Positions 1 through 43,960 of a stretch of DNA of 64,000 bases are shown one piece after another. The notes beneath the pieces are model-generated. The model saw only the letters and a list, made by a program, of their open reading frames with translations, did no database searches and was not told the DNA's origin. Both the position numbers and the translations under genes were made by a program. The stretch is from Piedraia hortae CBS 480.64 (taxonomy: Eukaryota), in the NCBI GenBank assembly GCA_010093745.1, contig MU006002.1, positions 1-64,000 of the forward strand, read 5' to 3'. Position 1 is the stretch's first letter. Every line of letters starts with the position of its first letter.

Positions 1-913
1 TTATTAGTAACCGTCGCTCGGCTCTCGACTTCACGCGTCAACTAGTTTTCCGTAGAGATTTGTATGCAGGTACACATCTGCTCACAATTATAATAGGATC
101 GCGACGGGTCGGGCCGGCGGGGTTTAGCTTCATGCACTCGAGTTTTGGTTTTGGGTTCTGGTGGGTCTAGATAGAGGGATCCATTGGCAGAACATACCAA
201 TTATTGCTACGACCTGTGTTGCTTGGCTGTACATTCGCCTTTCCCCTTGAACAATGGCTGTGCTTCTTGAGTATTCAATCGCTAGCTAAGTGAGGTGAAC
301 TTTATCATTTCAGCGCAGATTTTGGTGGTTATCACATAACAGGGAACTTGCGTTCATCCTCATGGGATGACATCTTCGCAATTCCCACTGAGATATGCAA
401 CACCTTCATGCCATGGATCGTTCTTTTTGGGAAATAGCAACGGTGACGATGGGTTGGGTCGATGGGATTAGATAGATCGGTACTGCCAGTGGAATACAAG
501 CCGCAAAGGCTGGACGTAGTAGTATACAGAGGAAAACGAGTGATCAAACCGATGGAAGGATGTCCTTCAATCGGCCATCAATTTTCTGCAGCCGGACCAG
601 ACCCTGCTTCTCTTTTGGTGTAAAAGCTATCTTTATATGCAGCTATGATCCAGATGGAACAACCGCTTGACGGGCCAACGGATCTTTGTAATTCTGCAGT
701 AAGTTGTTCAGCAGCCGCAGGAACCTCCGTTCGATGGGCTTCTTGCAGCCTGCACATACCGGCTGCGGGCCTCTTGTCGATACTTTTTGCACAGAAAGCC
801 TCTTCCCCTCGGTTTGACCTTCGGGGCTGTTTCTCCCTTGGCTGGCCTCCGCTTCTTGTTGCCCATGAGAGGAGGAAGAAGAGACTGCTTCAACTCCGCT
901 GGGGCTTGCGGTC

Positions 914-1150
914 AAGACGTGCAGTCTCGGTCAAAGAGTGTGTGTAACTGTATACGTCTCTACGTGCTAAGAGCTAACACAACGTCTTCCACAGGCCCAC
1001 AGCTGGGCCAGAACCGCATTTACCGAGACCACGCGATGACGTGATCTCGTCACAGGAGAAAACTCCTCTATGCGGCAGAAACCCCTGCGAAGCCTCGGGC
1101 GTTCTAACTACCACCGATCGAACTCATCTGGCACAGGGCTCACCGTGCTA
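914..1150. repeat. Dispersed ~235-bp repeat (possible solo LTR or element end), copy 1
   Basis: Aligns by eye, in direct orientation, with 62975-63206 (TGTAACTGT..ACGTCTCTACGTGCTAAGAGCTAAC ... GGGCTCACCGTGCTA). Contains a TGTAAC...CACA stretch reminiscent of LTR termini. Confidence 0.8.
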
Positions 1151-1720
1151 GCGGCTTGGTGGCATTGGCATCTTGGGCTTGCACCTGTTCGGCATCTCCT
1201 TGCCGAATGGCAGCGTACGATGCATTTGACCGACGGTACCAAACATGACTTATGCTGAAGACAGCTTTCTTGTAGTTTGTCCTCATGTGCCATATACACT
1301 TTTCGAGCACGGGGACAAGTTCGTGTCCACGATCAGGGACCTGATGATGTCCGCATACACAGTGCCAATCAAAGCCACGTGAGTAGGTCTCTACCCATAC
1401 GAGCAGAACATCCTGCCCCCAATCGCCTGAGCCCTCGCGTACTCCCCCCATGATGTGCGGTGGCTCCACGCCCTCTGTCCAGATCCTCGCTCAGGCCATG
1501 GCTGCGATAGTTTACAGGGTCAGGATCAAAGCCACGAACAAGAAGGGCATGTCAAATGCGTGCGTCGTCCCGACCGAAGCCGAGTTGGTGGCGACCTTCA
1601 CGACGTTGCTCAGGTGCTCGTACATGTGCACGGCTGTGGGCGTGGCCTTCGTCAACTGCGTCCCTGTGCCTGTGCCCACGATGGCGAGGAAGATGGCGGT
1701 TCTTCATCTACCCCACGCTT
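1140..1720 (-). pseudogene. Disrupted unknown ORF of the element (gene F)
   Basis: GC3-rich frame reads TAIFLAIVGTGTGTQLTK...LILTL*TIAAMA*ARIWTEGVEPPHIMGG...WHCVCGHHQ...; it has two in-frame stops and runs into the ORF at 1140-1469. Confidence 0.5.
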
Positions 1721-1729
1721 GCGATCACC

Positions 1730-1771
1730 CTCCATGGAGTTAGGCAGCTGCTTGGTTGCCCTCGGCCTCGG
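1730..1771 (-). CDS. Capping enzyme fragment 3 (candidate nucleotidyltransferase motif VI)
   Basis: PRPRATKQLPNSME fits the RxxKxxPN pattern of motif VI, which is expected right after fragment 2 (ending ...IINPK). Confidence 0.5.
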
Positions 1772-1880
1772 AAGATAGAGACCAGTGTGCTCTTGTGCTA
1801 AGTCGTTGTGTGTAGTCATTATTTTAAGATCAAGCATTTTTCCGATTGTCGGTTTGCATGTCGGAAGACTGGCCGAGGTA

Positions 1881-2594
1881 TTACGTTGCATGCTCGAAGA
1901 CAGCATATATGATAAAGTCGGTCTTCCTGGCCTCCTTCTTGAATAGGCCCTTGTCGATGTTTGATACATTCTCAAAGGTCACTATTTCTGTACGTTTGTC
2001 ACTCCCTGTATTGATGGATACTCCCGCAGATGGGGTATCTCGGTCTGGTCTCATGTATCTTCTTCATATTGATAGTCAGCCTTGTCTTGCCAGACGGGAA
2101 GCTGAATCTAGGTATGTTATTCTCAAACTGCCGGTATACGCCTTTGCCGTTCAGACGTGTCCAGAAGCATACTGCCCCCACAGCAGGCACAAACGACTGC
2201 TGGTAGCTCATCGGCTGGCTTAGAATCATATGAAGCGGTTCATCATCAGACACATACAGTCTGATATTAATGGGCCTTGACTCGCCATTGGTATTCCGTC
2301 TGAAGTATATGACCTTGATCCCGTTGTCACTCGTCAGTTGCTCAATCGTATCCACTCCGCGAGACTGCTTCGTGCCTACGATGAACCCATTGGAGTCGTA
2401 CCTATTGCAGCAGAAGAAGTCCCATGGGGCATCCGAGATTTCGCATATCGGGTAAAAGAACGACGTAGCCTGCACGCCACCCAGCACAACACGATGATTG
2501 AACAATCAGCTTGATCAGCATAGTGGAATTTACTGCTACTGGGTACAGGAGACTGATGGGGCTATGTAGCTCATCGATAGGCTCCCTGCATAGC
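1881..2594 (-). pseudogene. Unknown element protein (gene E); lacks its own start here and has two apparent frameshifts
   Basis: Three frames appear to join: LCREPIDELHSPISLLYP... / FNHRVVLGG...KTRLTINMKK (ORF 1999-2505) / YMRPDRDTPSAG...FIIYAVFEHAT* (stop at 1881-1883). Confidence 0.5.
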
Positions 2595-2764
2595 CTTGGG
2601 GTTGATGATCCTGACCGCGCCGCCGTCCCCTTCCACCACGTCCAGCTCGTAGACCGCGTACTCGTCCATCTCCGCACACCTGCTCATGACCTCGAACATG
2701 GTCGGCCCTGCGATCGCGTACAACGTGCCACCCTTGTGGATGAGGTCGATCGTGGGCCGCTTAA
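2595..2764 (-). CDS. Capping enzyme fragment 2 (motif V and OB-fold region)
   Basis: KRPTIDL...AVYELDV...VRIINPK resembles guanylyltransferase motif V (K..TID) and the following VxE strand. Codon third positions switch abruptly to G/C, as in fragment 1. Confidence 0.7.
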
Positions 2765-3317
2765 AGTTCTCGTCGCACCAGGTCGTATCGAATCTCTTCC
2801 TCAGACCCAGTATGTGCTCCATTCTCGTTCTAGACTCCTCGGCAAATAGTGGTGGGTCGACATTATCCTTGATTTGCTTGAATGAAAATGTCGTATGTTT
2901 CATGTACCCCATTGTCGAATCGTCTCCATCGTAAAGCTCGGATGACTTGTATCTGGCGCATGCCAGATCTAGTTTCCTGTGGGGAGTATTGATCCATTGC
3001 TCGCACTCTTCTATGCCTTCTTTGGAGCGAATGACATAGATATGCATCTCATCACCATCATAGTCTCCTTTGAGTGGACCAACAAGCTTGGGTGATACTC
3101 CCATGCATGTCTTGTTCCAGAACGAGAGGGTAACAGGTTGGATGGACTCCTGGTGGAGTGTCGGTGGCCTTAAGGCGATTGCACGCTCTCCTTCTTGTAC
3201 ACATCCCGACACATATCTCTGGGTTTTCTCGTCGAATCCGACCACCCTCCATTTATCACGAAGATACTCCGGGATAAAGATGATTCTATGGTCATATGTG
3301 TGAGGGGCAATGAGTAC
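2765..3317 (-). CDS. RNA polymerase beta-prime/RPB1-like subunit, fragment 2 (catalytic double-psi barrel)
   Basis: ALRPPTLHQESIQP...VGPLKGDYDGDEMHIY corresponds to the conserved NRxPTLH...NADFDGDEMN segment. DYDGD lies at about 3051-3065. No stop precedes the junction with capping fragment 2. Confidence 0.9.
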
Positions 3318-4232
3318 GACGTCAGCGCATCGTTGGCGGCTCAATCAGCCTCCGCTACAGGTACTAACACCCCTATGACGCTGCTTATGGATATAAGGCA
3401 ATTGATCAATGAGCAAACCGGAGTCATAAGAAGTATACTCGATCAACAGACAAGTAATATGGAACTCATGAAACGTATGCATAATGAGATTATAGCTTAT
3501 ATGCAAGAACTATCGCAATCTATGAGACAGACAAATCATCGGGTCGTTGGTACGAGCAATGGAATTATGTCTGAGTCACCACATAATAGTAAATGGTATC
3601 ATATTGGTGACCCAGTTGACAATTCGAGTAAAGTAGTGGCATGTTTACTTATACAGCTAGAGAAACTCGCATCACGGGACTCTGGCAATAGACCATCAGT
3701 CGGTGATTTTGACACAATGTCGATGGAACTCCGGGACTGGGCTGCAATAGTGAAAGCTATATGTAGAGCAGAGTCTACAGTGACAACACAAACAGGAAAG
3801 ATTGCACTCCCGAAAATATCGTCAAATGAGGCACAGTATGCTCTCAACGTTGTCACTAGCCCTACACCAGGTAGACATATCACATGTAAACCTAATCAAT
3901 ATCGGGACCTAGTAATAAATTGCCCTGGCCTCATTGGTTGCCTAGAAGAAGTGAGACTTCGTATAACTAAATGTCCAGGAATTGTAGGCAGAAGAACAGC
4001 TAGGGCACTTGCATCGATATCGTTTCCCTATGTAAATGAACACAATGATGTCATCAACTCAGATGTAATGAACAAGGGCACTGGTAACACTGTGGTAATG
4101 GACAAGGTACGTAGACTAAACATACCACAGAAGGAGATATACATATCACTGATTTTAAGAGATAACAAACGTCCCATGGCTGCTGCAGAGGAGGCATCTC
4201 GTTACACTAGGCGTATAACTACGGGCAGTTAG
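3310..4232 (+). CDS. Unknown element protein (gene D), N-terminal coiled coil
   Basis: Long open frame (3195-4232 in the track). True start is either ATG 3376, or ATG 3310 with a 1-nt frameshift (MSTTS-ASLAAQSAS...). Overlaps the stop of the convergent ORF. Confidence 0.65.
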
Positions 4233-5031
4233 TATCTATCCAGTGAGCTATGGGACTGCTGGCGTCAAGAATACCAGTCTCCACCCCCAACGCCTCTCTT
4301 ACCGAGTTGGTCTCATCGCTAGAGTGATGTAAACGAATCGTCCTTATGGCAGATCTAGCCAGCGATGATTGCGCGCGACGGGACTTCACGGCTTCTGTTA
4401 AAAACTTGATGGATGTGTCATTACGACAGTCATCGTTATCATCAGCTATGTATGCCGCAAGATACTCTAGATCACGAGCCTCAGCATCTGTTAGCGATAC
4501 TTCGTCGCTATTATCGGCAGAACTGAGCACAATGGTCTCGTTATCTTCGGCGACTGGGGCAAACCCAACAGACCGTGACGTTCTCGACATACCTGATACT
4601 GACCGAGTCGCGGCCACAGGTTGACATGCAGGTTCAGCGACAGGCTGCGAACTCGATAGTGACGATGTATCACTATCATTTGCAAACCCGATCATCTTTC
4701 TCGGCGTGTTGCTGATAGACGTAGCTCGGGACACAGTGCCACCGATATTTGGCTGTGGCACATATTCTTTTCGCCTGCTCATATACGATGGCTTGGCGAC
4801 GTTGGCTGGCTCGTTGATGCTAATAAAAGACAGTCTTACTCGAAGATCCATCATGGTCTTTACGACCAAGCGCATGTCTTCTTTAGCTCTCCGGCATATG
4901 GCTTCCGCATCGTCAACAGCCTTACCTTCGTCTAGCCCTTTGAACACACGCTCCATCTCGTCGAACCTGTCGACCATTGAGTTGCACGCTGATGCTGTGT
5001 TGGCTAGGCTGTTGTCAACGTTGTCCGACAT
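4219..5031 (-). CDS. Unknown element protein (gene C), coiled coil plus Ser-rich linker
   Basis: Intronless ~270-aa ORF from ATG 5031 (MSDNVDNS...), convergent with gene D. Confidence 0.65.
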   Translation of the reverse strand: MSDNVDNSLANTASACNSMVDRFDEMERVFKGLDEGKAVDDAEAICRRAKEDMRLVVKTMMDLRVRLSFISINEPANVAKPSYMSRRKEYVPQPNIGGTVSRATSISNTPRKMIGFANDSDTSSLSSSQPVAEPACQPVAATRSVSGMSRTSRSVGFAPVAEDNETIVLSSADNSDEVSLTDAEARDLEYLAAYIADDNDDCRNDTSIKFLTEAVKSRRAQSSLARSAIRTIRLHHSSDETNSVREALGVETGILDASSPIAHWIDTNCP

Positions 5032-5126
5032 ATTGTGATAGTCTGACTCAGTGTACTCTCTCTTGCCAATGGTTTCGGTGATCACTCTCTCGAGATATCT
5101 AACCGTTGCAATTCCACCAAGCGTGA

Positions 5127-5531
5127 TACCATCCTGAGACTTCCATCAACATGGCAATTGAGAATGCCTGATCTCATCCGACCGGTTTTGGCCTTCATTG
5201 CATCGAGCAGTATCTTTTTTGATTTGCCTTTGTGGAATTTGGAGGATCCCTGGAACGCAAACGATGCAGCACGGGCAACATCGTTCCTGATGACGGGCGT
5301 GTCGATCGCGAGCGACTGCGACGGAAGCATAACTCCTGACGGTAACTTGCACATGTGGCCAAGGCAGTCATCATGGATTGGACATTTCCTCATGTAGTCG
5401 TTGCATGAAGCTATGTTCATGGTGCTCACATTCCCCATATCGAGTCTCGAGTGACCGATGCCTATGATGATCCAGTCATCTGATGGGTCGAAGCCATCAT
5501 AGACGAGCCTCTCGACTTTGAATTCCTCCAT
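5127..5531 (-). CDS. RNA polymerase beta-prime/RPB1-like subunit, fragment 1 (zinc clamp and switch region)
   Basis: MEEFKVERL...CNDYMRKCPIHDDCLGH resembles the RPB1 C..C...CPGH clamp. MKAKTGRMRSGILNCHVDGSLRMV resembles LKGKxGRxRxNLxGKRVDxSxRxV. Confidence 0.8.
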
Positions 5532-5533
5532 TG

Positions 5534-6752
5534 TAATGGTGGTCCTGAGCTTATTCGTGAGCACCACCCCGTCGTTAGGCATAGGCTCGAGGACCAGCTG
5601 CGTCGTGGTCGGGAGTGCGTTCCAGGCCGTGCGGTAGATGAAGAACGTCTTTCTGGTCGTGCTCGGGCACTTGGAGAGGCCCATGCACTTGGGGATCCTC
5701 GCGTCGGCGTCCATGGCGAGCGTCTCGACGTAGACCAGGCTCCCGTCATTCATCATCTCTGCGAGGACAACGTCGGGTCTGGACGTGATTGGAGGCAGGT
5801 CGCTATGCGCGATCGTCGCCATGCACGCCACCACACTCAGGCTCGGGTCCGTGATCGTTACTATGTACCCGAACTCGTAGCAGAACACGTACACTTTCAT
5901 CCCGTCGGCCTTGGCCAAGAGCACGCCGTTGTAGACACTCACGTCCGGAGCATCAACAACCACATGATCGTTGGACCTGACCGCGGGCATGAACTCAGTG
6001 TCAACCACGTCCCGCATCATGTTGACGGTCCCGACGGTACTCAGGGCCATGCACAAGACTGCCCTCACGACGGGGCCTGTGGAGCTGCCCACAATCTCGA
6101 ACTCGGCCGCATACGTGACCCTGTTCGCGCAGATGTACTTCCTCGCAATCGCGTTCGTGGTGATGCCCCTCACCATCAAGACACACTTGACCTCGACCAT
6201 CTCGACGTCCCTCTGCGCGTGTCGGATTGTGCCCCCAAGGGCGTACTCGCGTGACACAGCCAGTGTGGATCCGGGTGCAATCGTGGTTGTGCTTAGGCCG
6301 ATCTTCATGGTCGTCTCCCCGTTCGACCTTATCCTCATCCTCGCGATCGTGTTGGTCTCCGGGCCCATCCAGACGATGCAAACCCTCTCCCTGATCCTGG
6401 CTGTGGTTACGTCTCCGAACTCGCCCCTGCCCATCATCGTGAACATACGCTCGGACAAGTTCGCGTTCAGCCTCATCTCCACCTCCTCGGTGGGCCTGGC
6501 GTCGACGTCCCTCACGGACATCGGCTCGACGTTGAAGTAGCTGCTCATGTCGGCGGTGCTCTGCATGCTCAGCCTCATCGCCATGTCCGTCTCGGTGACC
6601 TTCGCCGCAACCGAGGACATCACCGTGGCCGGATCCCTACACTTGTACAGGATGGGCTCGGGTGGCTCGTCGAGACCGAGGCGGACGTGAGCGAACCTCA
6701 CTCTCGCAGGGTCTCTGCTCTCGTTGCAAATCGGGCAGATGTGCGACTCCAT
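5534..6752 (-). CDS. mRNA capping enzyme fragment 1 (triphosphate-tunnel-type RNA triphosphatase plus guanylyltransferase motifs I-IV)
   Basis: EEVEMR, VSRE and AAEFEI fit triphosphate-tunnel glutamate motifs. LAKADG is motif I KxDG (5901-5912), VLAEM motif III and NDGVVL motif IV. Architecture recalls baculovirus LEF-4 and the poxvirus D1 N-terminus. Confidence 0.8.
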
Positions 6753-6831
6753 CCTCGTGCTCGGGCACGGGCAGCCGCTTGGCTCGCTGTCTGGTACCTA
6801 GTGACCACGGACCTGGGACGAGCGTGTCGAC

Positions 6832-7041
6832 ATGTGCATGGTGAAGTACGTCGTGTGTGGGACGTGCCAGACGACCATCAAGGTGTACGTGAGTAGGTGC
6901 GTGCACTAGAACCCGTCGTGCACTGCGATCGTAGACAAGGCCACGAGCACGCGTAGGAACGTGGAGAACGTGTCGGTCGCTGTGGCGGCTGTGATGCCGT
7001 GTGTGATTACGTCCGCGTGCACCGCGTGCTCCTCCGGCTAG
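6832..7041 (+). pseudogene. Small Cys-rich putative zinc-binding protein with an internal TAG
   Basis: MCMVKYVVCGTCQTTIKVYVSRCVH*NPSC...CVITSACTACSSG*. TAG at 6907-6909; high GC3. Confidence 0.55.
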
Positions 7042-7166
7042 GAAACGACGGGCCTGTTCCACGATCGCGTGCACGTTCAAAACCCCGCTGACAGTCATCA
7101 TCGGCTGCGAACCACTCGTTGCTCAACTACGCACTGCCACCCGCGATCTCACACAATGACGTCGCC

Positions 7167-7655
7167 ATGTGCCGCTTCAGAATCATGGTGTGCCGCTAGC
7201 ATGGGCACGAGATCGTGAGTAGGATGTGGTTTTGCGACGCGATCAAGAACGGCTACCTGTGCGTGGACCCGGCCAGGACCATGTTGAACTTCTCGAGCTT
7301 GTGCATACCTGCCGGGGCCCCGATCGGCTACGTGAACGCGTCCTTGTCCGTGGTTGCCCTTAGGGCGAGAGTCCAGCCCGTTGTGATGGCGATCCAGTGC
7401 GACGTCGGATTCGTTTTCACGAAGATGGGGATGAACCTCAATGCGATGATCAAGATGGAGAGCGTCCGGTCCACGTACCCGGGCATGTCCATGCCTCAGA
7501 CCTCGGATATGGTCAAGGGCGTGCACCACAGAGATGATGGTACGCCTGCCGGTTGGAGGTCGCGGTTGGGACCATCCACCAAATCGGAGAGCAGCACCGC
7601 GGACAGCATCGCGGACAGGGTGATCATCTTGGAGAGCGATGACGACTCGGAATAG
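7167..7655 (+). pseudogene. Element protein with an MC...C N-terminus, acidic C-terminus and an internal TAG
   Basis: MCRFRIMVCR*HGHEIVSRMWFCD... is in frame with ORF 7215-7655. TAG at 7197-7199. Confidence 0.55.
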
Positions 7656-8769
7656 AACCTCCACACGGCGGCCCGCCGGTTGATGGGACAAGCACAAGAA
7701 AAAAGCCACACAGTGAATGAAACGGCCTACGTCTTGCAGTGTCTCGCAAACTCCCAGGTGAGACGCGGCGAGATGGAAAAGGGCCCACAGCCTCTTGTCA
7801 TCCATAGGTACCCATTCGTCCGCTTACTCTCCCTCATGCGAGAGAGGGTTTGGCGTGAGTGCACCTGGTACCATTGGCGGCTGTTCAAGCAGTAGCCCAG
7901 AATCAGTATTCCTTGTGCTTCTACGTGTTACGAAACGCCAGCCTTGCCTTTCCCCAGCAGGGCTAGTGAATCACGTGCGCGGCCTATTTTCCTCAGGTAG
8001 GACGTTCGAGACGCAGTTCCAGTCGAACTTGTATGGTAGATGAAGGAACGTGTAGCGATAGTGCTCTCGTGGATGGGAGTGCGCAGCGGCCCGAACTAGG
8101 AGGACGTAGCGATAGACAGTGTCGATATGACAGTGTGTATGACTATATGTATCTGTGAGGAGACGTCAGAATAAAACTTCTGTACCTGTGGGCCGGTGAC
8201 GTCACGTCGTACGCTAACAGGGCGCATTCGCCATGTTACATATGACATGACCCTGAGGGAAAAACTCTGTGAAGGAAAAACCCTAGGGTGCAGCTGGTAG
8301 TGTAGGAGGTATCGCTGACTCGCTATGCAAGTGCCCCGCATACGCGCTAGCGGCGATGCTTGAATCCAACAGAACGAACGACGACAAAGCATCTCCCACA
8401 GGACGAAAAACACGTCACGGCGAGGTTATCCACATCCCAAAATACTGTTATGGCACCGTCTGATGCCACACAAGTACCTAGTCCGCATTGCTTTAAACAC
8501 CGGATCAGCCAGGAGCATTACAATGCTCGAGTTCGCCGAAACCCGTAGAGAGCTTGATCCAGTGTCCATGCCATCCCTTTTGTGGATGTCCGGGAGGTTG
8601 ATAAGTGTAGATCGTCCAGCGGCGTATCTGTGTAGCTGCCATTCATGATACGAGTGGAAATCAGCACCAGGAACAGAGGAACGTGAAAGGGGCCAGTCCG
8701 AGATAGAGAGAGGGCCGACGTATGGCTAAGTGTAGCCGCGACAGCTGCCCCTGTTACAATTGGTGATTT

Positions 8770-8990
8770 CGCAATCTCTCGTAACTCCAGCACTTGGTAC
8801 GGCGATTTGTCGTTCAGTGAAGATGAGAGTGTCCGGTATAAGGCATAGTCAATCGCTTCCAGCCTGAATTTGGTCGTAAAGCCAGCGTGAAGTAGCTTTC
8901 GGGCCAGAGTACAGACAATATTATTACTTGTTTCAGCCCTTCCGTTCTGCTTGGAGCTTTCCGGAAGTGTTTCGGTGAGCTTTTCCATAT
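8770..8990 (-). mobile_element. Degenerate Ty1/copia integrase fragment
   Basis: PESSKQNGRAETSNNIVCTLARKLLHAG...EAIDYALYRTLSSSLNDKSPYQVL resembles copia PQQNGxAERxN...W.EA...NR.P.....SPYE. Confidence 0.75.
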
Positions 8991-10269
8991 TCTTTGCATT
9001 ATCCGTTAAGTGAGGTGCCCCCAAACTCTAGTCCTCCGTCGAGGTGATAGATCTTGACGAAGCGACCCTGTTGAGTGTGAATATAGGCGGCGCGCCAAAA
9101 CGGCCAGGGACTATTGGAGGGCTGATAACTGGGCTACACTATTATGGTGTCTCTCCACCCTTTCAAACAAGCCGCTTGTTATTGTTGTATCCCTGGAAGT
9201 AGCCAACGAATACACCACAATCCCAGGGACCATGCTCGTATGGCTTTTGTCGTTTGGCCCAAAAGCGCAGCGAAACTGTCAAGTAAAAACAATGCAGCAC
9301 AATGGAGGAGGGTAGTCCCAACATCCTTCAAACCATGAGCTCCACGAGCCCAATGATATAGCCATGCTGGAGTGGTGAGAATCAAATATGAGGTTTGAAA
9401 AGGTCCTTGTTGAACTTCCATCAGCATCAGCATCAGCATCACCATCCTGCTGATGCACACGTGCCGCTTCGACTTCACGCTACTCCTTGGCGCAGCGTCT
9501 CTTTTCACCTCCATCCCTTCCCAGTCGTTCGACCGTTCGCACCAGCTGGTGGCGACCTTCTGTCATCTTCTTGCTTTCCTCATATCAACGTTCTGTGACA
9601 TATTGTCGCGAGCCCTTTCAGGGATTCCCGCTTGCGCTGGACTTTTGAGTTGCTCGATGCTTCCCATACCCTTACCCACAACGAAGAGGTATTCCAGTGT
9701 TGGGGTGGGGGGAAAGGGGGGGGAAGTCTTCGTCAATCGCATGGCATAAAACGTCTTCTCCAGCAAGCCTCGACTGCTCCTCGGATGCCAGCTCTACGCC
9801 CATGTTCCCTTGCGCTGTAAGTAGTATGGATAGAGGCAAGTCTCCAAGGCAAAGAGTGAGAACCGTCCCATTGCCAAATTCCCTGCGCGTTCGTATCCCG
9901 CGAGAGCCAAATCTGCGTATACTCTTATCGACGTATATGCCGATACAACCTTATGGCATTTTGTTATGGCATTTTGCATTGCCAAGCATGAGCGGTGTAA
10001 TCGGTTATCATTCCCCGGCACTGAATTCGAGGCTCAGCGCTGCGCAAGATATTGTCCATGAAGGAATTCGAATGCCCCAAAATCCGAAGTGTGAGCGGAA
10101 CCAGAATTAGATGCGGAATGGGCCGAAGCAAAACCTGCAGCGGTGATTCATCGTACATCTTTTGCGAGATTAGTTTCATTTTATGTAAGATAGTTCACTT
10201 TTGGCTAGATAGTTCACTTTCCTCAAATCATTCACTTTTGCTTGATTTGTCATTTTTACTCATATCATT

Positions 10270-10870
10270 CGCTTTTGGTCGGATCCTTTACGCAATCCGG
10301 ACAATCAAATCTCACTAGTATCGGATCGTTTTACTTTATTTGTTTTCCATTTTACGTCTATGGGTGGGTCATAGCTCCTAATGAGCTTATGCGCGGCCTC
10401 TGATGGGCGTTAGTCGGCACCACGCGCAAGCTCGGATCGTTACACGCGTTCCGAGAATCCAATTTTACTTGTGTCGGATTGCTGTACACGATCCGGATCA
10501 TCCAGTTTCACTTTCCACGGATCCCTATGCATGATCCGAAAACCCAAATCCCACCTTTCTCGGGTTGTTATACGCGATCCGGACTATCTAGTTCCACTTC
10601 CTGGAAAACACTTACATGTGGAAACAGAGCTACAACCGTTAAATGAGTTAACACGGCACCTAAATAGGTTGACAACGAATCAGAATAAGAACTGATGGAA
10701 TTTCTTACCAGAAGAAAGTTTTTTTGATCTTTTACAGGTCTTTCCAGATATGTTGATGTAGCTGCTACAATGAGTCACGACTGTTCAACTACAACAGATA
10801 TGTAGCTGCTACAACTAGTTACTACTTCTCAATTACAGCTACGTTGTCTGCTACATCACCACTCCTCTCC
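10270..10870. repeat. Clustered short motifs (CGGATC/ATCCGG; palindromic TGTAGCTGCTACA x2), probable DNA-transposon subterminal relics
   Basis: Many GGATC/ATCCG motifs at 10278-10585. ATGTAGCTGCTACAA occurs twice, near 10757 and 10800. Confidence 0.35.
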
Positions 10871-10987
10871 ACCTTGATCACGACTTTTTCCACCTGACGA
10901 TATGGCCAATCCCACAAAAATTCACTCCACATGAATCCATACACTTCTGCACAGGGACACAGCCCCCCTCTACTCTATCCACACAAT

Positions 10988-11686
10988 TTACCCCCCAATC
11001 CTCCTCTCCACAAACCCCCTCTCCAACCTCGCGACCTGCTTCTTAAACGCCTCAACCTCCTCCCAACAATCAAGCGGTCGCCTATCATGCGTACGGAGAC
11101 ACCTCACAAGCGCATCCCTCGTCTTTTCCACTTCAGGATCCTGCGATTTACTCTTCCTTTCCAGCAACTTGCTCTTCAACTGCTCCAACTCCATCATCGC
11201 GTCCTTTGAACTCAACGAATCCCTCTTTTCGGGAGTCAGCACCGGCTTCCCCTGTAGCGCAGCGTCGTCGTGGTAAAACGGCGAGCGGAGATGGGCGAAG
11301 AGGCCCGTAGGTTCAGCTGCTTCGGGCGGGACGAGTTCCGGTGCGGTGGAGGAGGACTCCGAACCCGTAAGGTAGCTGACGATAGAGTCGATTTTCTCTG
11401 CCTGCGTGTCGCGGACTTGTTCCAGGTGTGTGCGGAGACGCTGTTTGGCGTGGAGCTCGGTGGTGTATGCCCTAGTTCGGTCGTTCTGTGGTGGTGGTTA
11501 GTAGGGATGCTTCACGGAGGTGGCGGAGGATGACTTCGGGGGAGCGCTGGAGGGAGTCGAAGAGGGCGTGGCTTAATGTGATGCCTTGAGCAGATCTGCG
11601 CGCAGGGGGGTTAGTGGAGATGCTTTGCGATAGTGAAGGGTGTAGTACGCGTAGGATGGTACAGCAGTCGAAACGCTGTTGCCCAT
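10988..11686 (-). CDS. MIC19: MICOS subunit Mic19-like (DUF1690), spliced
   Basis: MGNSVS myristoylation-type start; DSLQRSPE..ELH; C-terminal RDALVRCLRTHDRRPLDCWEEVEAFK. Two probable introns with CTAAC branch sites. Confidence 0.8.
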
Positions 11687-12361
11687 TGTTTTCCTCGGTC
11701 GGCAGAGCTGGGGGTATTGTTCCGCGGGGAGACGGGGGGTCGGGCCGATCCGAGAGACGTCACCTGTCACATTCATTCGATGGGTTGTCACAATGGGGCA
11801 GGATCTCGGAGATGAAGGACCGTCAAGGGGGTGTGGACACAATGATGCTATCCACAGACCTAAAGAAGGAACCGTTAAGCCCTCCTTAATGGAGTCAGGG
11901 AGGTGTACAAGATGAAACCACAACCCTCCGAAGCTTGAACCCACCGAAGTAACGAAGATAGAAACACTGAAAATAGTCCCTCAGGAGAGACGCCAAACAC
12001 AAATCTTCACGGCCATACTCTGGAAGAAAGCAGGCCCTGTATAGCAATGAGGCGTGTTCTTACAGCAACCCAATCCAGGAACATCCAGCATCCCAACTAC
12101 AACTCCAACCAAACCCCCAAGTAACCACCTCCCACCTCCCCCTCCCCCCATCGGATCGGCCACTCCAACCTCCGTCCGCGCGGGGACGTTCGCGCACCAC
12201 CCTCCGGTCCAAGTGTGCAGGTTATTTCCATCCATCCCAAACGCGATAACCTCGCAAAAATCCCCCGTTCCCCTTCGAACGTCTTTTCGACACCCTCCTA
12301 CGCACACTCGTTTCTTCACATTAACAACATACCATTCACTCGTTTGATTCCACCCAGCAGT

Positions 12362-13528
12362 ATGAATCTACGAAGCAGCCTCATCCTTGCGGCCGCGACT
12401 CTAGCAAGGGCATCGACCCTCCCTCCAACAGCCGCCGCCTCCCCTGCCGCAGGCTCCTATCCCGCAGCGGCAGCGGCAGCGATCCCATCCACCGCATCAG
12501 CGGTGCTAGGAAATTGGTCCCTCGCGTTCGGGCACCTCTTCTCCGGGTCGTCCGATACCCCCAACTGCCTATCCTCAATCTGCTCCGACTTCTCCACCCT
12601 GGGCCACGGCCGCCTCTCCCCAATCGGCCTGAATCCGGATTTAGTCAAACAACCCATCTGCAACGCCTCCGCCAGCAGTGCGAACACCGCCGATTCCCTG
12701 CCATGGACAATCCGCTCTTTGAGCGACATGTTCATCGCCCAACTCCTCGGTGCCTTCAGCGACGGCACCACTGTCGCGGGCGCAAGCCTCTCCGCTTCCC
12801 CCAAAGCAAAGAAAGCGTACAGCTACATCTGCACGAATGCGCGGTACTCTGTCCTCGACGCTTATCATCTCGACTCCGCCCGTGTGGTTAACACTACTTG
12901 TCACGCCGCGGGCACAAACATGGCGCCGAGACCGGCCCAGGCCCTCGCGTCCGCGAATCTTACGGATGTGAGTCTCTATTCAAATGCGGTGTCGGATCTG
13001 TTCGGGTCGACGTGGACGGCTACGGCGCGTGATAAGGCTGAACTTGGGGATTTGTGTACTACGGCCAAGGGAAGGTTGGATGGGTATGCGAGGATGGGAA
13101 TGAGTGCAGATCTTGTGAAAGAGTGTGTTTGTGGTGGGAATGTGTCCGAGATGCCGTCTGCGGTCCCGTCGGCTCATCCTCATGGTCCGCCGATGGGTGC
13201 TCCGATGGGTGCGGGTGGTGCTCCGATGGCAGGGATGAATGCCCCGTTGGGAAGTGCGCCTGGTGCTCCGATGGAAAATGCACCGCATCATCCTCCGTTT
13301 TACTTTCCGGGAATGGACACCTTGCCTAAACGAGGAGAGGTGCTGACGACGACGCAAGCGACTCAGTTGATCAAGATGCATATGACGCGCATATTTGTCA
13401 TTGTGCTGAACGGGATGAGCGATATGCCCGATTGGAATGACTTCCTGTGCAAGAATTTGAGCGTTCGGGGACTCGACTCGTGCGGGCTGATGGGTGAGGG
13501 AGTTTTGAAAGCTGTTTGCGCAAAGTGA
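12362..13528 (+). CDS. Putative secreted Cys-containing protein of unknown function
   Basis: Signal-peptide-like MNLRSSLILAAATLARA, scattered Cys, and a GAPM-repeat low-complexity insert. Confidence 0.7.
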   Translation: MNLRSSLILAAATLARASTLPPTAAASPAAGSYPAAAAAAIPSTASAVLGNWSLAFGHLFSGSSDTPNCLSSICSDFSTLGHGRLSPIGLNPDLVKQPICNASASSANTADSLPWTIRSLSDMFIAQLLGAFSDGTTVAGASLSASPKAKKAYSYICTNARYSVLDAYHLDSARVVNTTCHAAGTNMAPRPAQALASANLTDVSLYSNAVSDLFGSTWTATARDKAELGDLCTTAKGRLDGYARMGMSADLVKECVCGGNVSEMPSAVPSAHPHGPPMGAPMGAGGAPMAGMNAPLGSAPGAPMENAPHHPPFYFPGMDTLPKRGEVLTTTQATQLIKMHMTRIFVIVLNGMSDMPDWNDFLCKNLSVRGLDSCGLMGEGVLKAVCAK

Positions 13529-13678
13529 GCGAATTTTTTCCATGCAGAGATGGGATGCTTTTTTTTCTTCTTCTTTTGGCAGGGACGGTTACAATAGAGC
13601 AGAAAGAGTTCTTTTTAGAAACAGGAGGGGGACATTTAACATTTGACATGCCATTTCTTGGAACTGTGGTAGACAGTT

Positions 13679-14413
13679 TTATTTATCGCCAACAGGTTCC
13701 TCCCCGTCATCAGGCAGCAGGTTCCGCTTGGCAGCCACACGTTCTTGTCGTCGTTCGCGCGCAGCCTTGGTCTTGGCACGTTTGGCATCCATCTCTTCCT
13801 TGATCGCACGCGCACGCTGCGCCTCGGCCTTGGCTTTGTGAATCTACAAAAGTCAGCCTCCGTCATCCCTCCATAATATCAGAAAACCTACATGCTCGAC
13901 AAGAGCGCGCTTGTGCTTGAACGTGTTACCCTTGCTCAGGTGGTACAGCTCATGGTAGAGGTGCTTATCAATCTTGCCGGCGGCGCGATACTTGACCAGC
14001 AGACGGCGAAGGACACGCAGACGACGCATCCACATCACCTGACTGGATACCGTCAACACAGTCCCCAGTCACCCAGCAGAATGACAATACTCACCTAGGC
14101 ATACGAGCGTCAGCCGTTCCCTTTCTCTTTCCAAAACCACGATGACGGCCGATGCGGCGGGCGGCGGTAAGCTCGCGGGCGCGGGCACGAGAGTGCATGG
14201 CCACGGGCTTGCGGATAATCAGTCCATCCTTGTACAACTTGCGGATCGTCTGCCTCGAGTTGGCGCTAGAGATCTCGTTCACTTCGTTCGGGTCGAGCCA
14301 GATCTTGCGTTTGCCGCATCCTGCGACCGACGCCGCAAGACGCTTCTGCGTGCGGAGGTTCGCCCTGCAGAGAGTTAGTATTCCATCGTCCCTACGAGCT
14401 GGAGCGCTTACAT
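13679..14413 (-). CDS. RPL19: 60S ribosomal protein L19 (eL19), 3 introns
   Basis: [27 protein letters not shown]...; the start codon is split AT|GTAAGC...[30 protein letters not shown]. Confidence 0.97.
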
Positions 14414-14561
14414 CGTTGCTGCGGTGAGATTGCGGTGTTGCTGCGGTGGGAGGGGTGATTTGAATGCCAAGCCCACTGCTGTAATTCCGCGCACGGAGCG
14501 GGCCGTTGTCACGTGTCAAGAGACGTGGTCATTCACCAACCACTTAAAAAGTCTAGATAGC

Positions 14562-17500
14562 TCAATCCTCCAGGCTCTCAACCTCCACCCTCCCAACAGC
14601 CATGACCTCTCTCAGATCCTCCACCTCATCACCCTGTAGCCCGAGTCCGCCCTGCCCGCCCTCGGCCTCCCTCCTTTCTTTCGCCTGATTACCCAACCGT
14701 ACCGCAACTCGATTCTGATACTCTGTCAAGCTCCTCTTCGTGTTCGGCTGTAGCGACGCCCCGGGACCCGCCATGTACTTCTCAAACAGCGCACTTTCCT
14801 CATCCAGAACCGAGAAAACCGCAAGATACGCCGCCTCCGCCGCAAGTTTAACAGGCAGGACAGGGTCGCGCACGCTGGAGAAAATCGCAGGGACTAGCGA
14901 CTCCATATATCGCGGCACGATGAGCGAGTTCTTCTCCCTTGTCACTGTTCGGACCACAACAAGCGCGAGGCGGCGAGCATCTGATGGGTTGCCCGGCGCT
15001 ATAATCTTTGCAAGGGATTCGATGAGTGGTCGGATGGTTTCGGCTTCGTCTGTGGAGAGGAGGTACTTCCCCGCTGCCATGACGCCGTTGGATGAGATGA
15101 ATGGATTGTTACTGCTGATTCCATGGATGATGACTTGCCGGATCGCTTCACCTGGTAGGATAGTAGGAGACTTGGCCAGGACCGCGTTGAGGGCCAGAAC
15201 AGATGAGGGAGTCATGTTCTCCGTCAGAATGCGCGTCTTGATGAGACTTGTAGCAGCATCCTTTGGAAGAACACACACAAGAGCAGCAAGCAGCTTCGCA
15301 AATGTGATGTTGACTGATGCATCTGCTGATCCAACGTCTGAATCAATCAGCCCCAGAATAGCCGTCCGTGATGCATCGTTCATGTTCGAGCCCGCTTGAC
15401 TGACGACCTCGTAAAGGGCCGTTAACATTGCATTTCGAACGCCAGCATCGGTGCTTTTAGAGCCTGTGACGAGTTCTGATATAAGCGGATCGATGCGAGG
15501 AGTCATCTTGATCAGAGTTCCCAACGCCCTAGCCGCTCTCGTCCTTAGAACCTCGCTCGAAGGGTCTGCCAGCGACTTGGTAAACGTCCGCTGAAGCTGT
15601 GGCAGGAACGGCTTCAACAGAGTTGGGATCTTGTCTAGCAGATTGTTGATAGTGAGCAGAATAGCTGCCTTGAGATCCGTTGATCGTTCAGATACAACTC
15701 TGATCAGCGGGCCAGTGATTTGCGTGACGAACGGTTTGAGGCCCTCTGGACTTGTCCTGGCAACGACATCTGAGATGGCCAGTGCCGCTTGTGTTCGTTG
15801 CTCGGCAGAGCCGTTCATGAGACCTTGCAAGAAGATTGGAAGTACAGCTTGGATGCCTTTTGGTAGAGAGAACCCGGGTAGTGGATGGCCGGGAACGCCG
15901 ACGTGGTTCAGAGACTGTCGAGTTGAAGTCACAAGTGCCTCTAGCTCATCTTTACGCAGACGTGAAGTCAACGTAGACAGAGCAAGCCAAGCGGCTTTGA
16001 CGACATCCTCATCCTTGTCGTCGAAAGCGATAAGAAGCACTCGGACGAGGTCCGCGTAGTATCTTGTAAAGTCGATATCTGTCTTCTCCACGAAGCGAGC
16101 AAGATGATTATTGGCAGCGGCTCTTCGGTGATGGTCGTCATTCTTGGTCAACGCTAGCATAACGCTCATCATCGTGTTCAGTCCTTCAGAGTCATCAACT
16201 GAAAGCAGAACCGTATCCAGCGCAGCATCCAGCTCAGCCTTGAGCGTCTCATCCTTCGTCGCAACAATATCATCCATCAGCGCGTTGATGATCTGAGGCA
16301 GTCGTCTCGTCATAGTCGAGCTCGCCACCTCCGCCAACGAGGCCAAAGCCCTCGCATTGAACGCCGTCATTGGCGAAGTAAGTAGCGTAGGCAAAAGGTT
16401 CGGCAGAATAACATTCGACCTCGACGATTCCGTCAACAAAGTCAACAGACCCGAAAGAGCAACATCAGCCTGTCCTTCAGAGCGCAAGAGATTCAGCAAA
16501 TGCGGCAGGACCTGATCAATCGCCCTCTTGCCCACAACCCTCTGCAACGCATCGAACGCCTCCGCTGCCGCCTCTCTGACATCAGCATCTGGATCAACAA
16601 GTGCTGTCCGTACAATAGCTATGATAGCACCTTCATAATCCGCCATTGAATCCGACGAAGCTGACTGAATGAGTTCTTTCAAAGCAATGCAAATCCCCTG
16701 CCTTGCATTCCTATCCGTGGCAGTGTGCAGTCCTTCCTCCAGCGTCGGTAGCAACGTCCCCAAAACCCCCTCACCCGCTTTGCGAATGAGTTCTCCCAGA
16801 GCATTGCTCGCAATGACTTTTTGTTCCATATTCGAGTTCGCCAGCCGTCTGATAAGGAACTGTGTGAGGGTGGGAATGAGCTCGCGTAGAGTTCTTGGTG
16901 TCGAGACGAGAGCCTTCCAGACATTTACAGCGGCTGTGCGCACCAAGCCAGAGGTATCGCAGCGACAGATATATAGACCCGAGAGGATTCTATCTCGTTT
17001 TTCCACTCCCAGAACCTCCAGCAGCGACTGCGAAGCGGTGTTTGATCGTTCGTAGTTTTCTGCCTCGGACTTGCCGCTGATGCCCGTGAGATTGAACAGA
17101 AGATCGCCAACAAGCTCCACGGAGCTGAGACGGATGCGGTAGCTGTCGTCTGCTAGACCGCGCTCAAGCTCGGGGAGAAGGAGATCAACGGAGCGTGAGG
17201 CAAAGTTCTTGATAAGAAGTCGAGCAGCACGTAGCGAGGTTTCGCGAATCGATTCAACATCATCTGCAAGACCGCCAAGGATGGCGGGAATGATGCGAGA
17301 AAGGTAGTTGGCAAAGCTCTGGCCAAAGCAGGCGGGTAGGAAGATGAAGAGCGACATGAAGCCTTCGCGTACAGAGGGCTTTGAGCTGGACACGTTCTGC
17401 AGCATTGTAGGCAACGTCTCTTCCAGCCTGGTCGTCCCAAGTCCTGCAAGAACTTCGCTGAGCGCCTGTGCAGACCCCAAACGGTCGCCAGCACCGGTAT

Positions 17501-20500
17501 CAGACCTCAAAGTATGCATCAGCTCTGGGATAAGCTCCGGCAAAACATCCTCTCCCAGCTTCTCAATCAGAGACCCTAGGGCCTTGGACGCTGTGGCTCT
17601 AGTAGCAGGCACCGGATCAACAACAGCAGACTTCAAACCCGCCACAAGAATCGGCAGGTGAGCAACCAAGTCCCTGCGTTCAGTAAGATGCGCAAGACTC
17701 CCAATAATCTGGGCAGCTTTCCTCTTAGTCGTTGACCTCTCCCCAAGCCCTCGCTCAAGGATTCGAACAACAAGAGCAAGCGACGGCGCATCAAGGTAAT
17801 GAACAAAATTAACCTTGATCAACGCATCCAAAGCATCATCCGTGTATCTTGTCGGATCACTCAATGCCTTGAGCAGTCGATCAACCTGGCTCTTCACTTC
17901 GGGGTTGGTAATCACATCCCCGAACCGCTTTAAACTACGGTTAGCAGAAGCCCTGACCTCCTTGTGGCTGTCATTCAGCACTTCCGTCAACGGAGGAATG
18001 ATATCCGGTAGACTGATCGCAAGCTGTTGCGGATCAAGGTATGCCATTGCACCCAGAGAATCGCTCGCGCCCTTTTTACTTCGCCATTGCGGTTCATCCA
18101 GCCCTTCGAGTAGCATTGGCAATATCTTCTTCACCCCGTATGAGCTGAGGGAGGAGAAACAAGTCTTTGCAGCATCCAGACAAGCCTCTCTGACGTCTGC
18201 ACTCGAATCTCCAAAGCCGACAAGCAGTTGCGGCACAATCGAGATGACATATGGCTCGAATACGCGGTTGAGGAGCAGCGATAGCAGCTCGTACGCGAGG
18301 AATGCGCCCTGTCTCTCGTTTGCATCTTTCTTGTTCTCCGACGCCGCACGGAGGGTTGACATTAATCGACACTCCTTCATGAGCACAATTCCCCTGCCCT
18401 TGACGATGCCAGCAAGTCCATATGCCGCGCCACGTCGGGTAGCATACGGCTTCCCATGCAGCGTCTCCTCCACCGTCTTCTGCAGGTAATAACCCGCCTG
18501 ATCACTCGACGCACGCACCAGCGGCGGGAGACACTGTGCAATCGCATACTGCACCGACTCAGACGGTGTACTCAGCGTCCACAACAGCCTGTCCACAACC
18601 TTCTGAATCCTCGCATCACCCCTTGGCAAATGCCTCGCAAGCGCCCCATAAACAATCACAACCGCCTCGTTCACCAGATCACTTGCCTTCGAGCCCGACG
18701 AATCCTTGAGTTTCCCCTCACAAAGGTCCATCAACGCCTCGACCTCCTCCTCTCCGCGAAGTGCAACAACCCTCGTAGCCGCGTCCACAAAACTCGCACG
18801 CACCCTCGCATCCCTATCACAGAACGGCCCCATCTCAACCAAAAACATCAAAAACGGAACCAACTCCTCGGCGGGAAAACACTGCGCTAATTCCTTGAAT
18901 GCGAACGCAATCCCCTCCCTCGCCTCCCAAGGATCACTCAAATCCTTCTTAACCGGCATACCAAAGCGATCAAGCTCAGGCTTCTTAACCTCCGCCCGTT
19001 CCACATACATCCCCTTCAACGTAGCCACCAACCCCTCAAACAACACCGGATACTCTCCCACCGCACCACGAACCGCCCGCGCAGCAGCCCTCCTCACCTG
19101 ACCATCCTTCCACTCCAGCAAATACGGGAGGCAACTTCCCGCCGCATCCCGCGTCAGCGTCAACCCATTTTCCTCCCAAATCTCCCTCGCAATCCGTCCA
19201 AGTTCCGGGACATCATCATGGCAAGCCAGCCAGATCTCCTCGTAAAACCCCCCCTCAGTGAGCGAAAGCTCATCACTTAGCGCAGACAACACAGCGCTTC
19301 TAACCAACGGATCCGGGACAAGAACCCCCTTCACCACAACCGCAGTCTCACCCACCCCTATAGTAGGTGAAACGGACCTGCAAAGGTCCGTGAACACATC
19401 CCTCATCTGGCGGAAATGCGGCGCATACCGCTGCATCGCAGCAATCAAACAACGAAGCAGATCCCGCTGCGGGAGACGTATATCCGCACAGATTGTTGTG
19501 TGGAAGGACAGAAACTCGATGGCGAGGACAATCTGCTCGTCCGCTTCGTCGCCTGTGCAGGCTATCCCGCCGTTGTCTAGGACTTGTAGGATTAATGGGA
19601 GGGTGTAGCTGAGGGTTATGGGGTCGAGGGGGCGCTGCTCGCCGAGGGAGCGGAGGCGGTAGAGGAGTCTAGTCACCTGTTCACTAAGCTGTTCGGTTGT
19701 TAGGTTGGAGGGTAAGGGGGTGATTCCCGCTGCGCGAAGGGTTGCGACGCCGATGAATTGTCGCTGTGCACCCAGACGGGGTGAGATGCGGGAGGAGCAG
19801 TTGAGGTAGCTGATGGAGGCTGCGTCGCTGAGAATGAGACTCGCGCCGGCTTGGATGGTTTGGAAGAGGAGCTGGATCAGGGGGCCAAACCAGGCTTCTG
19901 CGTCCGTGGGCCCAGTGATGAGGGCGTTGATGATTCCGATTCCGCGCTTGAGGTGGGAGACGATGGTTGAGATGTGGTGGCGGATTTCGGATTCTTTGGA
20001 GAGTTGGGTGTTGATCTTTTCTTGTTCTTCGGGGGTGAGTTTTTTAGTTTGACCTTTTTTCTGTGCGAGCTGCGAGCGGAGGTCTGCTTCCCATTTCAGC
20101 ACGTCGTAGTCTTTGATGTTTTTGCTGACGGCTTGGGCTTGGGATGGGGTCGATAGAACGTCTATGAATGCCGTTCCTTCTGGTGTGCGGTATATGGCTG
20201 CTTCGGTGGGGCCGACGCTCGTCAGTTGGGCCGGGTTCAGGTCTTGGGAGATTTGGGCGACGATCTTGGGGGTCAGGATTTCGGGTGCGACGAATGCAAG
20301 GTCGGCGGCGGCACTGTAAGCTGCTTCTTGGAAGGCTTCGTGCTCGGAAGCTGTTAGGATCTGTGAGAGGCATTCTTCAGCGTGCCTCGATGCAAGTAAA
20401 CCCGGATCGCATCCTACATGCAGACACAGCTCAACCCAAGACGCTCGAGGGATGAGTTGCGGTCTACAGAGGACCAACAACCTGACCATCTGGGCGCGGA

Positions 20501-43935: not shown

Positions 43936-43960
43936 NNNNNNNNNNNNNNNNNNNNNNNNN
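43936..43960. other. Assembly gap (N run)
   Basis: 25 N. Confidence 1.

Follow-up and report, generated by a model that had tools for sequence, protein, structure and literature searches.

The left end of a 64-kb window of the fungus Piedraia hortae CBS 480.64 (contig MU006002.1, assembly GCA_010093745.1, positions 1 to 64,000) holds three dispersed pieces of a gene for a viral-type mRNA capping enzyme, separated and flanked by fragments of other genes. The window is the whole stretch of DNA that was analyzed, and all coordinates without a locus name refer to it. The map of the pieces was built by tblastn and tblastx against full-length relatives, labeled P for proteins and L for metagenome loci, and the junctions between the pieces were read directly.

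Gene pieces at the locus

Capping piece 1 (6752–5538, minus strand) corresponds to family residues 1–408 and comprises an N-terminal cysteine cluster, a tunnel triphosphatase, and the nucleotidyltransferase half of a guanylyltransferase; its first 406 codons share 51% identity with residues 6–458 of the relative P0001 (E 6e-149). Piece 2 (2762–2595, minus strand) covers family residues 412–468, including motif V and strands of the oligonucleotide-binding (OB) fold, and was recognized by tblastn (2765–2595, matching P0001 residues 411–468 with 38% identity, E 3e-7). Piece 3 (1771–1730, minus strand) reads PRPRATKQLPNSME, carries motif VI, and represents about family residues 468–482; the homology stops at 1730. 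In four metagenome loci (L002, L003, L004, and L005), the homolog of piece 3 follows the piece-2 homology within 35 nt, with 57%–69% identity over 13–21 residues (tblastx).

The triphosphatase motifs EVEMR (6485–6471) and AEFEIV (6107–6090) lie in piece 1 together with the guanylyltransferase motifs KADG (5912–5901), VVLAEMM (5771–5751), and PNDGVV (5579–5562), while motif V, KRPTIDL, is located at 2762–2742 in piece 2 and motif VI, RATKQLPN, at 1762–1739 in piece 3. In place of a contiguous chain from motif III to motif VI with its OB fold, the window has these motifs on three pieces that are 2.8 kb and 0.8 kb apart. A sequence-only reading of this DNA had placed motifs I–IV, V, and VI on dispersed pieces, and both the order of the tblastn and tblastx matches and the invariant columns of the family agree with it.

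These columns were taken from an alignment of 27 of the 33 relatives found; five short or partial sequences (P0009, P0015, P0018, P0027, and P0037) and, for no stated reason, P0012 were left out. The invariant positions include E94, E96, R98, E221, and E223 in the triphosphatase, and K285/D287/G288 (motif I), D398/G399 (motif IV), R410/K412/P414/T415/D417 (motif V), and R470/K473/N477 (motif VI) in the guanylyltransferase; a C-terminal glycine-rich motif is invariant as well. The motifs of the window coincide with these columns: EVEMR with E94/E96/R98, AEFEIV with E221/E223, and KADG with K285/D287/G288. In total, the pieces retain 55 of the 58 invariant columns that they cover, and 82 of the 90 columns with a conservation of at least 90%. 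The three changes are C40Y in the N-terminal cysteine cluster, P373T, and R484K; in addition, the invariant R410 is lost at the junction of pieces 1 and 2. The methyltransferase domain of the family (residues 490–729) is nowhere in the window, and six proteins used as tblastn queries, three of them full-length capping enzymes (P0001, P0002, and P0033), gave no match at E ≤1e-3 there for residues beyond approximately 470.

Piece 1 is part of an ORF (open reading frame) of 556 codons (5082–6752, minus strand) that stays open through the capping/polymerase junction. A search of 5.8 billion proteins with this ORF returned 37 matches at E ≤0.01, of which 33 are relatives of its first ~400 residues, most of them 720–770 residues long and encoded on contigs of at most 35.1 kb. 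The other four are proteins of ~586 residues with Rpb1 domain 2, which cover only the last ~150 residues, at 74%–87% identity. Because the two sets of matches are separate along the ORF, it is a chimera. Fungal species names (Baudoinia, Beauveria, and Macrophomina) are attached to three of the 37 matches. One relative, P0018 from Baudoinia panamericana, is annotated as a “hypothetical protein” of 351 residues on a 1.7-Mb scaffold and lacks the triphosphatase and most of the methyltransferase; from its sequence, it looks like a further chromosomal remnant of this element family in another fungus.

The sequence-only reading had treated the DNA between the capping pieces as genes, yet it consists of gene fragments and not of complete genes. 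Directly behind piece 1, the coding-strand hexamer ATTACA (5537–5532, minus strand) precedes the Met1 codon of an RNA polymerase beta-prime-like fragment, whose residues 1–135 (5531–5127, minus strand) are in frame with piece 1 and are 87% identical to P0030. Residues 136 to ~318 (3311–2763, minus strand; 81% identity to P0030) follow only after an inner insert, and the fragment is truncated at ..CDENF, so that ~320 of ~587 residues are present in the window. Its GDYDGDEMH metal-binding motif lies at 3068–3042, and Pfam assigns it to RNA_pol_Rpb1_2 (E 1.6e-7; 32.1 bits against a cut-off of 25.3). The fragment thus carries the DxDGD signature of the double-psi barrel of multisubunit beta-prime subunits, and residues 169–247 of P0030 match Rpb1, Rpo1N, and beta-prime chains. 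P0030 had no relative in a scan of viral contigs.

The inner insert of 1.8 kb (5126–3312, without strand) splits the polymerase fragment and consists of two convergent units, ORF E (5085–4219, minus strand; 288 codons) and a fragment of ORF F (3360–4232, plus strand). ORF E is the final ORF of a polyadenylated transcript described below, and it has no homolog at E ≤0.01 (among proteins of 158–504 residues). The ORF F fragment represents residues 41–336 of a protein family of ~330 residues, with 50 representatives at E ≤0.001, and lacks the N-terminus. The model of ORF F is confident, with a predicted local distance difference test (pLDDT) score of 88.7, and shows a long N-terminal coiled coil and a globular domain of helices in which a CPG is near-invariant. 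The model found no PDB or BFVD match at E ≤0.001, only coiled-coil matches in the VIA search (Z ≤6.1), and no usable match in the protein atlas, and its relative P0039 had none in the viral-contig scan.

The insert between capping pieces 2 and 3 (2594–1772; ~820 bp) holds a fragment of a P0038-like gene (2505–1941, minus strand), which covers residues 78–266 of the 289-residue P0038 with one frameshift. Two further fragments flank the capping pieces in the opposite orientation. The first (1335–1695, plus strand) corresponds to residues 77–196 of a further element gene with 457 residues and is related to L007 14784–16154. The second (7102–7305, plus strand) has weak tblastx matches to L001 8579–8782 and L002 1772–1951, and it resembles the gene that, in free relatives, neighbors the capping gene on its upstream side in divergent orientation. 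Every match to an element ORF in the window falls inside 1335–7400. Pfam found nothing for the 556-residue ORF, ORF E, ORF 1999–2505, or the ORFs 7149–7805 and 6637–7101. Likewise, neither the ORF F family profile nor phmmer with ORF E, ORF 7149–7805, and P0038 found anything among the ORFs of the loci L001–L016, which are incomplete.

The pieces also differ in third-position GC content (GC3), and the switch in composition at the junctions, already noted in the sequence-only reading, is confirmed. The GC3 of capping pieces 1, 2, and 3 is 0.85, 0.91, and 0.79, respectively, and that of a fragment at 1447–1695 is 0.84; the DNA between the capping pieces has lower values: 0.61 and 0.54 for the two RNA polymerase pieces, 0.52 for ORF E, 0.36 for ORF F, and 0.63 for the P0038-like fragment. 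Four host genes have a GC3 of 0.60–0.63, and the free loci that were fetched mostly have 0.8–0.95. The capping pieces reach a best identity of 51%–53% to any database protein, the RNA polymerase pieces 81%–87% to P0030. P0030 shares only 23% identity with the RNA polymerase of L001, the locus that encodes the closest full-length capping relative of the window. Together, GC3 and these identities point to a mosaic drawn from at least two source lineages, with the RNA polymerase fragment probably from a lineage other than that of the capping pieces.

Fold of the capping family and its free relatives

The fold of the window copy was approached through the full-length relative P0001, which was modeled with AlphaFold from the 27-sequence alignment (pLDDT 81.9). 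Its best whole-length match is the vaccinia virus enzyme D1 (Foldseek E 1.5e-17), followed by the Chlorella virus guanylyltransferase, the methyltransferase domain of African swine fever virus (ASFV), tunnel metalloenzymes, and the cap N7-methyltransferase RNMT. The model aligns with D1 over residues 91–729 (Z 13.7, root-mean-square deviation [rmsd] 20.5, 467 residues aligned). By domain, residues 90–246 match the triphosphatases Cet1, Pct1, and that of mimivirus (2qy2; Z 12.4, rmsd 2.6, 145 aligned), residues 247–493 the guanylyltransferase of Chlorella virus (1ckm; Z 11.2, rmsd 3.7, 227 aligned), and residues 496–729 RNMT (Z 15.8, rmsd 3.8, 212 aligned); for the methyltransferase domain of ASFV (7d8u), Z is 13.6 (rmsd 4.2, 218 aligned).

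These matches support the earlier proposal of a viral-type enzyme in which a tunnel triphosphatase and a KxDG guanylyltransferase are fused. The enzyme had been called bifunctional in the sequence-only reading; both of those assignments stand, but because the full-length model matches D1 over its whole length, the family is predicted to be trifunctional, with an N7-methyltransferase as the third activity. The KADG lysine would be the putative guanylyltransferase nucleophile in the window copy. No ligase is among the structural matches listed for the model, so the alternative of a DNA or RNA ligase was not borne out. The full-length relatives, as modeled in P0001, have the motifs and a contiguous OB fold in one chain, and pieces 2 and 3 of the window, as the sequence-only reading would have it, map onto the predicted OB-fold strands and motif VI of this model. 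At the sequence level, the best match of the family profile among PDB sequences is a chance match (E 0.46), and the family had no relative in the scan of viral contigs. In one relative, P0033, a NADAR domain is fused N-terminally to the capping enzyme, giving a protein of 925 residues.

One metagenome scan yielded 16 loci (L001–L016), and the contigs of relatives are GC-rich and not longer than 35 kb. L001, of which 22 kb of a 32.3-kb contig was fetched, encodes a beta-prime-like subunit (6269–8014), the capping enzyme (10001–12190), a beta-like subunit (12177–14588), and a family B DNA polymerase (20461–22179); three of its 18 ORFs exceed the curated cut-off of a Pfam family. L006–L009 have the same gene set plus a NADAR gene, and 12 of their 24 ORFs have a Pfam match. 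NADAR occurs in some of the free elements, for instance at L006 17804–18337 (E 6e-50). All five DNA polymerase ORFs of L001, L006, L007, L008, and L009 match PF00136 (E 1e-23 to 1e-34), whereas a protein-primed polymerase model was matched by none of them; by PDB sequence, archaeal PolB and Pol alpha/delta are nearest. The RNA polymerase of the free relatives is made of separate beta-prime-like (~590 residues) and beta-like (~800–950 residues) subunits that are recognizable only around their catalytic cores. In the Pfam scan of 42 ORFs from L001 and L006–L009, more than half of the ORFs had no match, and the matches were to RNA polymerase, PolB, and NADAR only; the Nucleocytoviricota hallmarks (double jelly-roll capsid, packaging ATPase, D5 primase-helicase, and VLTF3) were not seen in it.

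Several further observations were made on these loci. L008 contains a frame of 1,925 codons (9338–15112, minus strand; GC3 0.66) with a polymerase B domain only at residues 1532–1844, preceded by 1,500 unassigned residues; this frame may be a fusion or an artefact of the frame choice. Of 57 element genes (L001, L002, L006–L009, and L011), 13 have the sequence [ACT]AAAA[CT] 16–74 nt ahead of their first ATG, against 2.6% of random 80-nt windows of the same loci, a comparison in which the motif was picked by eye post hoc and the intergenic DNA is less GC-rich; it is only a lead to a candidate promoter or terminator signal. The alignment of a putative paralog family of the free elements was unusable, at 10%–32% identity.

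From the gene content of the free relatives, host-independent transcription is a fair inference for them. A literature search at the level of listings and abstracts returned nothing describing such elements, and they apparently form an undescribed family of DNA elements of filamentous fungi. For the window itself, the sequence-only reading went further and proposed an element carrying its own RNA polymerase and capping enzyme, a proposal contradicted by the truncated state of both genes and by their place, at single-copy depth, in a fungal chromosome.

Chromosomal setting, transcript, and origin of the mosaic

The genes flanking the mosaic are ordinary fungal nuclear genes, which start at ~8.5 kb and include GCN1 (with a fungal HEAT domain), a DEAH helicase, RabGAP, RasGEF, cullin, and Rap1. 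In the DNA run X1, a single contig of 6,415 bp spans 1665–8079 with zero differences, at a depth of 11.7 against 12.3 for the adjoining host contig; therefore, the region is single-copy and chromosomal. Short high-copy repeats at 1–317 and 8084–8560, with a summed contig word depth of ~4,000–4,900 in X1 against ~12 for single-copy DNA, break every contig, and a related stretch of 87 bp (77% identity) is found at 51831–51915. Rfam and tRNA scans of 1–12000 gave no result. Runs of N at 37754–38733 (980 bases) and 43936–43960 (25 bases) are assembly gaps, which explains the apparent low GC at 38–39 kb.

The junctions were also recovered from X2, another sample of the same organism from another study. 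Two of its contigs (1665–3452 at depth 10.8 and 4123–8080 at depth 696) together cross every junction without a gap or a joint, and no contig lies over 3488–4121. X2 is labeled as RNA only by a guess, and it is read as RNA here because of a poly(A) tail and a depth that varies from 0 to 696. Read from 8080 to 4123 on the minus strand, the second contig ends in 24 non-templated A (24 T before 4123, where the genome has ..CTAAACA), at a poly(A) site 96 nt beyond the stop codon of ORF E on the minus-strand RNA. A collinear contig with such a tail means that the mosaic is transcribed without splicing, and it speaks against host-independent transcription at this locus, which the sequence-only reading had proposed. 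The start of the transcript is hidden beyond 8080 because of the repeat at 8084–8560. On the opposite strand, the 3′ end of ORF F includes this poly(A) site, which comes right after an AT-rich stretch with TATGTATAT (4123–4160, minus strand) that resembles fungal polyadenylation efficiency elements.

The junctions themselves were informative about the way in which the pieces came together. Approximately two capping codons, R410 among them, are missing at the capping/polymerase junction, where the capping sequence resumes at K412 after T408/409. The inner insert makes a clean break in the RNA polymerase between ..RMV and IAPH.., and the polymerase continues at residue 136 without loss of a residue. 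Direct or inverted repeats of at least 20 nt are absent from the borders of all inserts, and the boundaries of the capping and polymerase inserts are not GT..AG. Three familiar sources of such a structure were rejected: insertion of a transposon, as there are neither duplications nor inverted ends; a spliceosomal intron, as GT..AG is lacking and the RNA is unspliced; and decay by repeat-induced point mutation, as the frames are open and identity to P0030 is 81%–87%. Small deletions and clean breaks without target-site duplication or inverted ends fit end-joining rather than transposition. The nested order of the pieces (A, B, C, B′, A′, D, A″) is not that of one random ligation; rather, it argues for insertions into pre-existing pieces, before or after integration.

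The locus is accordingly best read as an endogenous viral (or plasmid-like) element of mosaic structure that is not functional and resides in a nuclear chromosome of the fungus, and not as a working gene, with a probability of about 0.7. A fragment of a GC3-rich DNA element, comprising the first two thirds of a D1-type capping gene and part of its upstream neighbor, would have been captured. The 5′ half of a beta-prime-like gene of another lineage, carrying the 1.8-kb insert, would then have entered the capping gene between motifs IV and V, and a piece of a third gene would have been inserted between motifs V and VI. The fragments may have been joined by end-joining of free DNA, with the later insertions nested one inside another. 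With its OB fold split off from the nucleotidyltransferase domain and without R410 and the methyltransferase domain, the capping enzyme probably cannot work here. Signs of decay include the change of three of 58 invariant residues, the loss of R410 and of the methyltransferase domain, and the frameshift in the P0038-like fragment.

Several points weigh against this interpretation. The catalytic motifs of the triphosphatase and nucleotidyltransferase are all intact and the 556-codon frame is open, and the X2 contig 4123–8080 has ~4-fold the word depth of a neighboring host contig (696 against 181); an exapted gene would be compatible with both points. Three nested insertions in a target of a few kilobases are very unlikely as independent random chromosomal hits; the fragments may have been joined prior to integration, or the locus may attract insertions. 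Furthermore, the RNA identity of X2 is drawn from its tail and depth, X1 may be the source sample of the window, which would leave X2 alone as independent, and the mosaic sits at the left edge of the window, so that the extent seen may be partial.

One alternative is exaptation of the mosaic, in which the 556-residue chimera would serve as a decoy against incoming elements or the poly(A) RNA would feed RNA silencing directed at them. An open in-frame ORF with intact catalytic motifs, a depth of 696 against 181 with a proper poly(A) tail, and the stacking of fragments of at least two lineages at a single locus, nearly all in one orientation, are consistent with it. A decoy is conceivable, as the capping enzyme of yeast virus-like elements is described as binding the RNA polymerase of the element (PMC6211774). 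However, an in-frame fusion has a one-in-three chance of arising, three invariant residues are changed, including a cysteine of the N-terminal cluster, the viral genes are sense-oriented on the transcript, and contig word depth is a poor proxy for expression; the idea is therefore regarded as unlikely. The wider proposal that the locus is a host-transcribed archive of captured fragments from at least two lineages of an undescribed family of elements that replicate and transcribe themselves, and that its RNA or chimeric protein protects the fungus from them, appears slightly less likely still. If true, it would be a fungal counterpart to the immunity that derives from endogenous viral elements.

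A live integrated or episomal element with rearranged genes is very improbable. Its free relatives do lie on contigs of 20–35 kb and several element pieces cluster here, but the pieces are all truncated, the 64 kb contain no DNA polymerase, beta-like subunit, methyltransferase, or second half of the beta-prime-like gene, the DNA depth equals that of the host, and host genes start within a few kilobases. An assembly artefact, to which the flanking high-copy repeats at 1–317 and 8084–8560 might have given rise, is hardly credible in view of the X1 contig of 6,415 bp with zero differences and the two X2 contigs, which span all internal junctions.

The least credible alternative is a working capping enzyme made from the three pieces by splicing, trans-splicing, or DNA rearrangement. 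In its favor, the pieces lie in order on one strand, all six motifs are present, and a shared triplet permits an in-frame join, but the RNA contigs follow the genome without interruption across 5532 and 2762, with no joint linking the pieces, the boundaries are not GT..AG, and R410 and the methyltransferase are missing. That triplet, TAA on the plus strand and TTA on the coding strand, is present at 5534–5536 and 2762–2764 as the sequence-only reading had reported; it carries no weight, because an in-frame identity of 3 nt within 3 nt is seen for 20% of position pairs drawn at random from the window, and a join there would leave the linker one residue short and without R410.

As a mosaic of decayed fragments, the broken gene is a chromosomal footprint of, and a pointer to, self-transcribing DNA elements in filamentous ascomycetes, and it raises the question whether fungi keep and use records of past infections by DNA elements. 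To our knowledge, no DNA viruses or self-transcribing cytoplasmic DNA elements are known from filamentous ascomycetes.

Comparison with known systems

Vaccinia virus D1 (PDB 4cke, 4ckc, and 6rfl) has the same single-chain order as the capping family, with a tunnel triphosphatase, a KxDG guanylyltransferase with OB fold, and an N7-methyltransferase. The family differs from it in length (~730 residues against 844), in its N-terminal cysteine cluster, and in the lack of any match at the sequence level (no Pfam family), and the window copy is broken. ASFV NP868R and mimivirus R382 share the architecture of D1. In baculoviruses, LEF-4, LEF-8, and LEF-9 provide a capping enzyme with tunnel triphosphatase and guanylyltransferase and reduced beta/beta-prime-like subunits, next to a family B polymerase; a methyltransferase domain is absent from LEF-4, and the genomes of baculoviruses exceed these elements by far in size. 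No LEF-4 entry appeared among the results of the PDB searches.

The endogenous elements of large DNA viruses in fungi and protists are likewise chromosomal, fragmentary, and decayed, and sometimes transcribed by the host. The published fungal cases that were checked come from giant viruses and from fungi outside the Dikarya, whereas the mosaic has a small-element source, is nested, and draws on at least two lineages. In one publication, the word “Ascomycota” does not occur (PMC7017919).

The yeast cytoplasmic virus-like elements are AT-rich, 9–16 kb long, and replicated by protein-primed polymerases. Like the free relatives, these DNA elements of fungi encode a D1-like capping enzyme of their own as well as a reduced RNA polymerase of the multisubunit type. 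In contrast to them, the free relatives have a PF00136 polymerase, separate RNA polymerase subunits, a GC3 of 0.8–0.95, and contigs of up to 35 kb. In the pGKL2-type elements, the D1-like capping enzyme K2ORF3p is accompanied by K2ORF6p/7p as the reduced RNA polymerase (PMC6211774), and pieces of yeast-type elements are described as having entered fungal nuclear genomes (PMC13348850).

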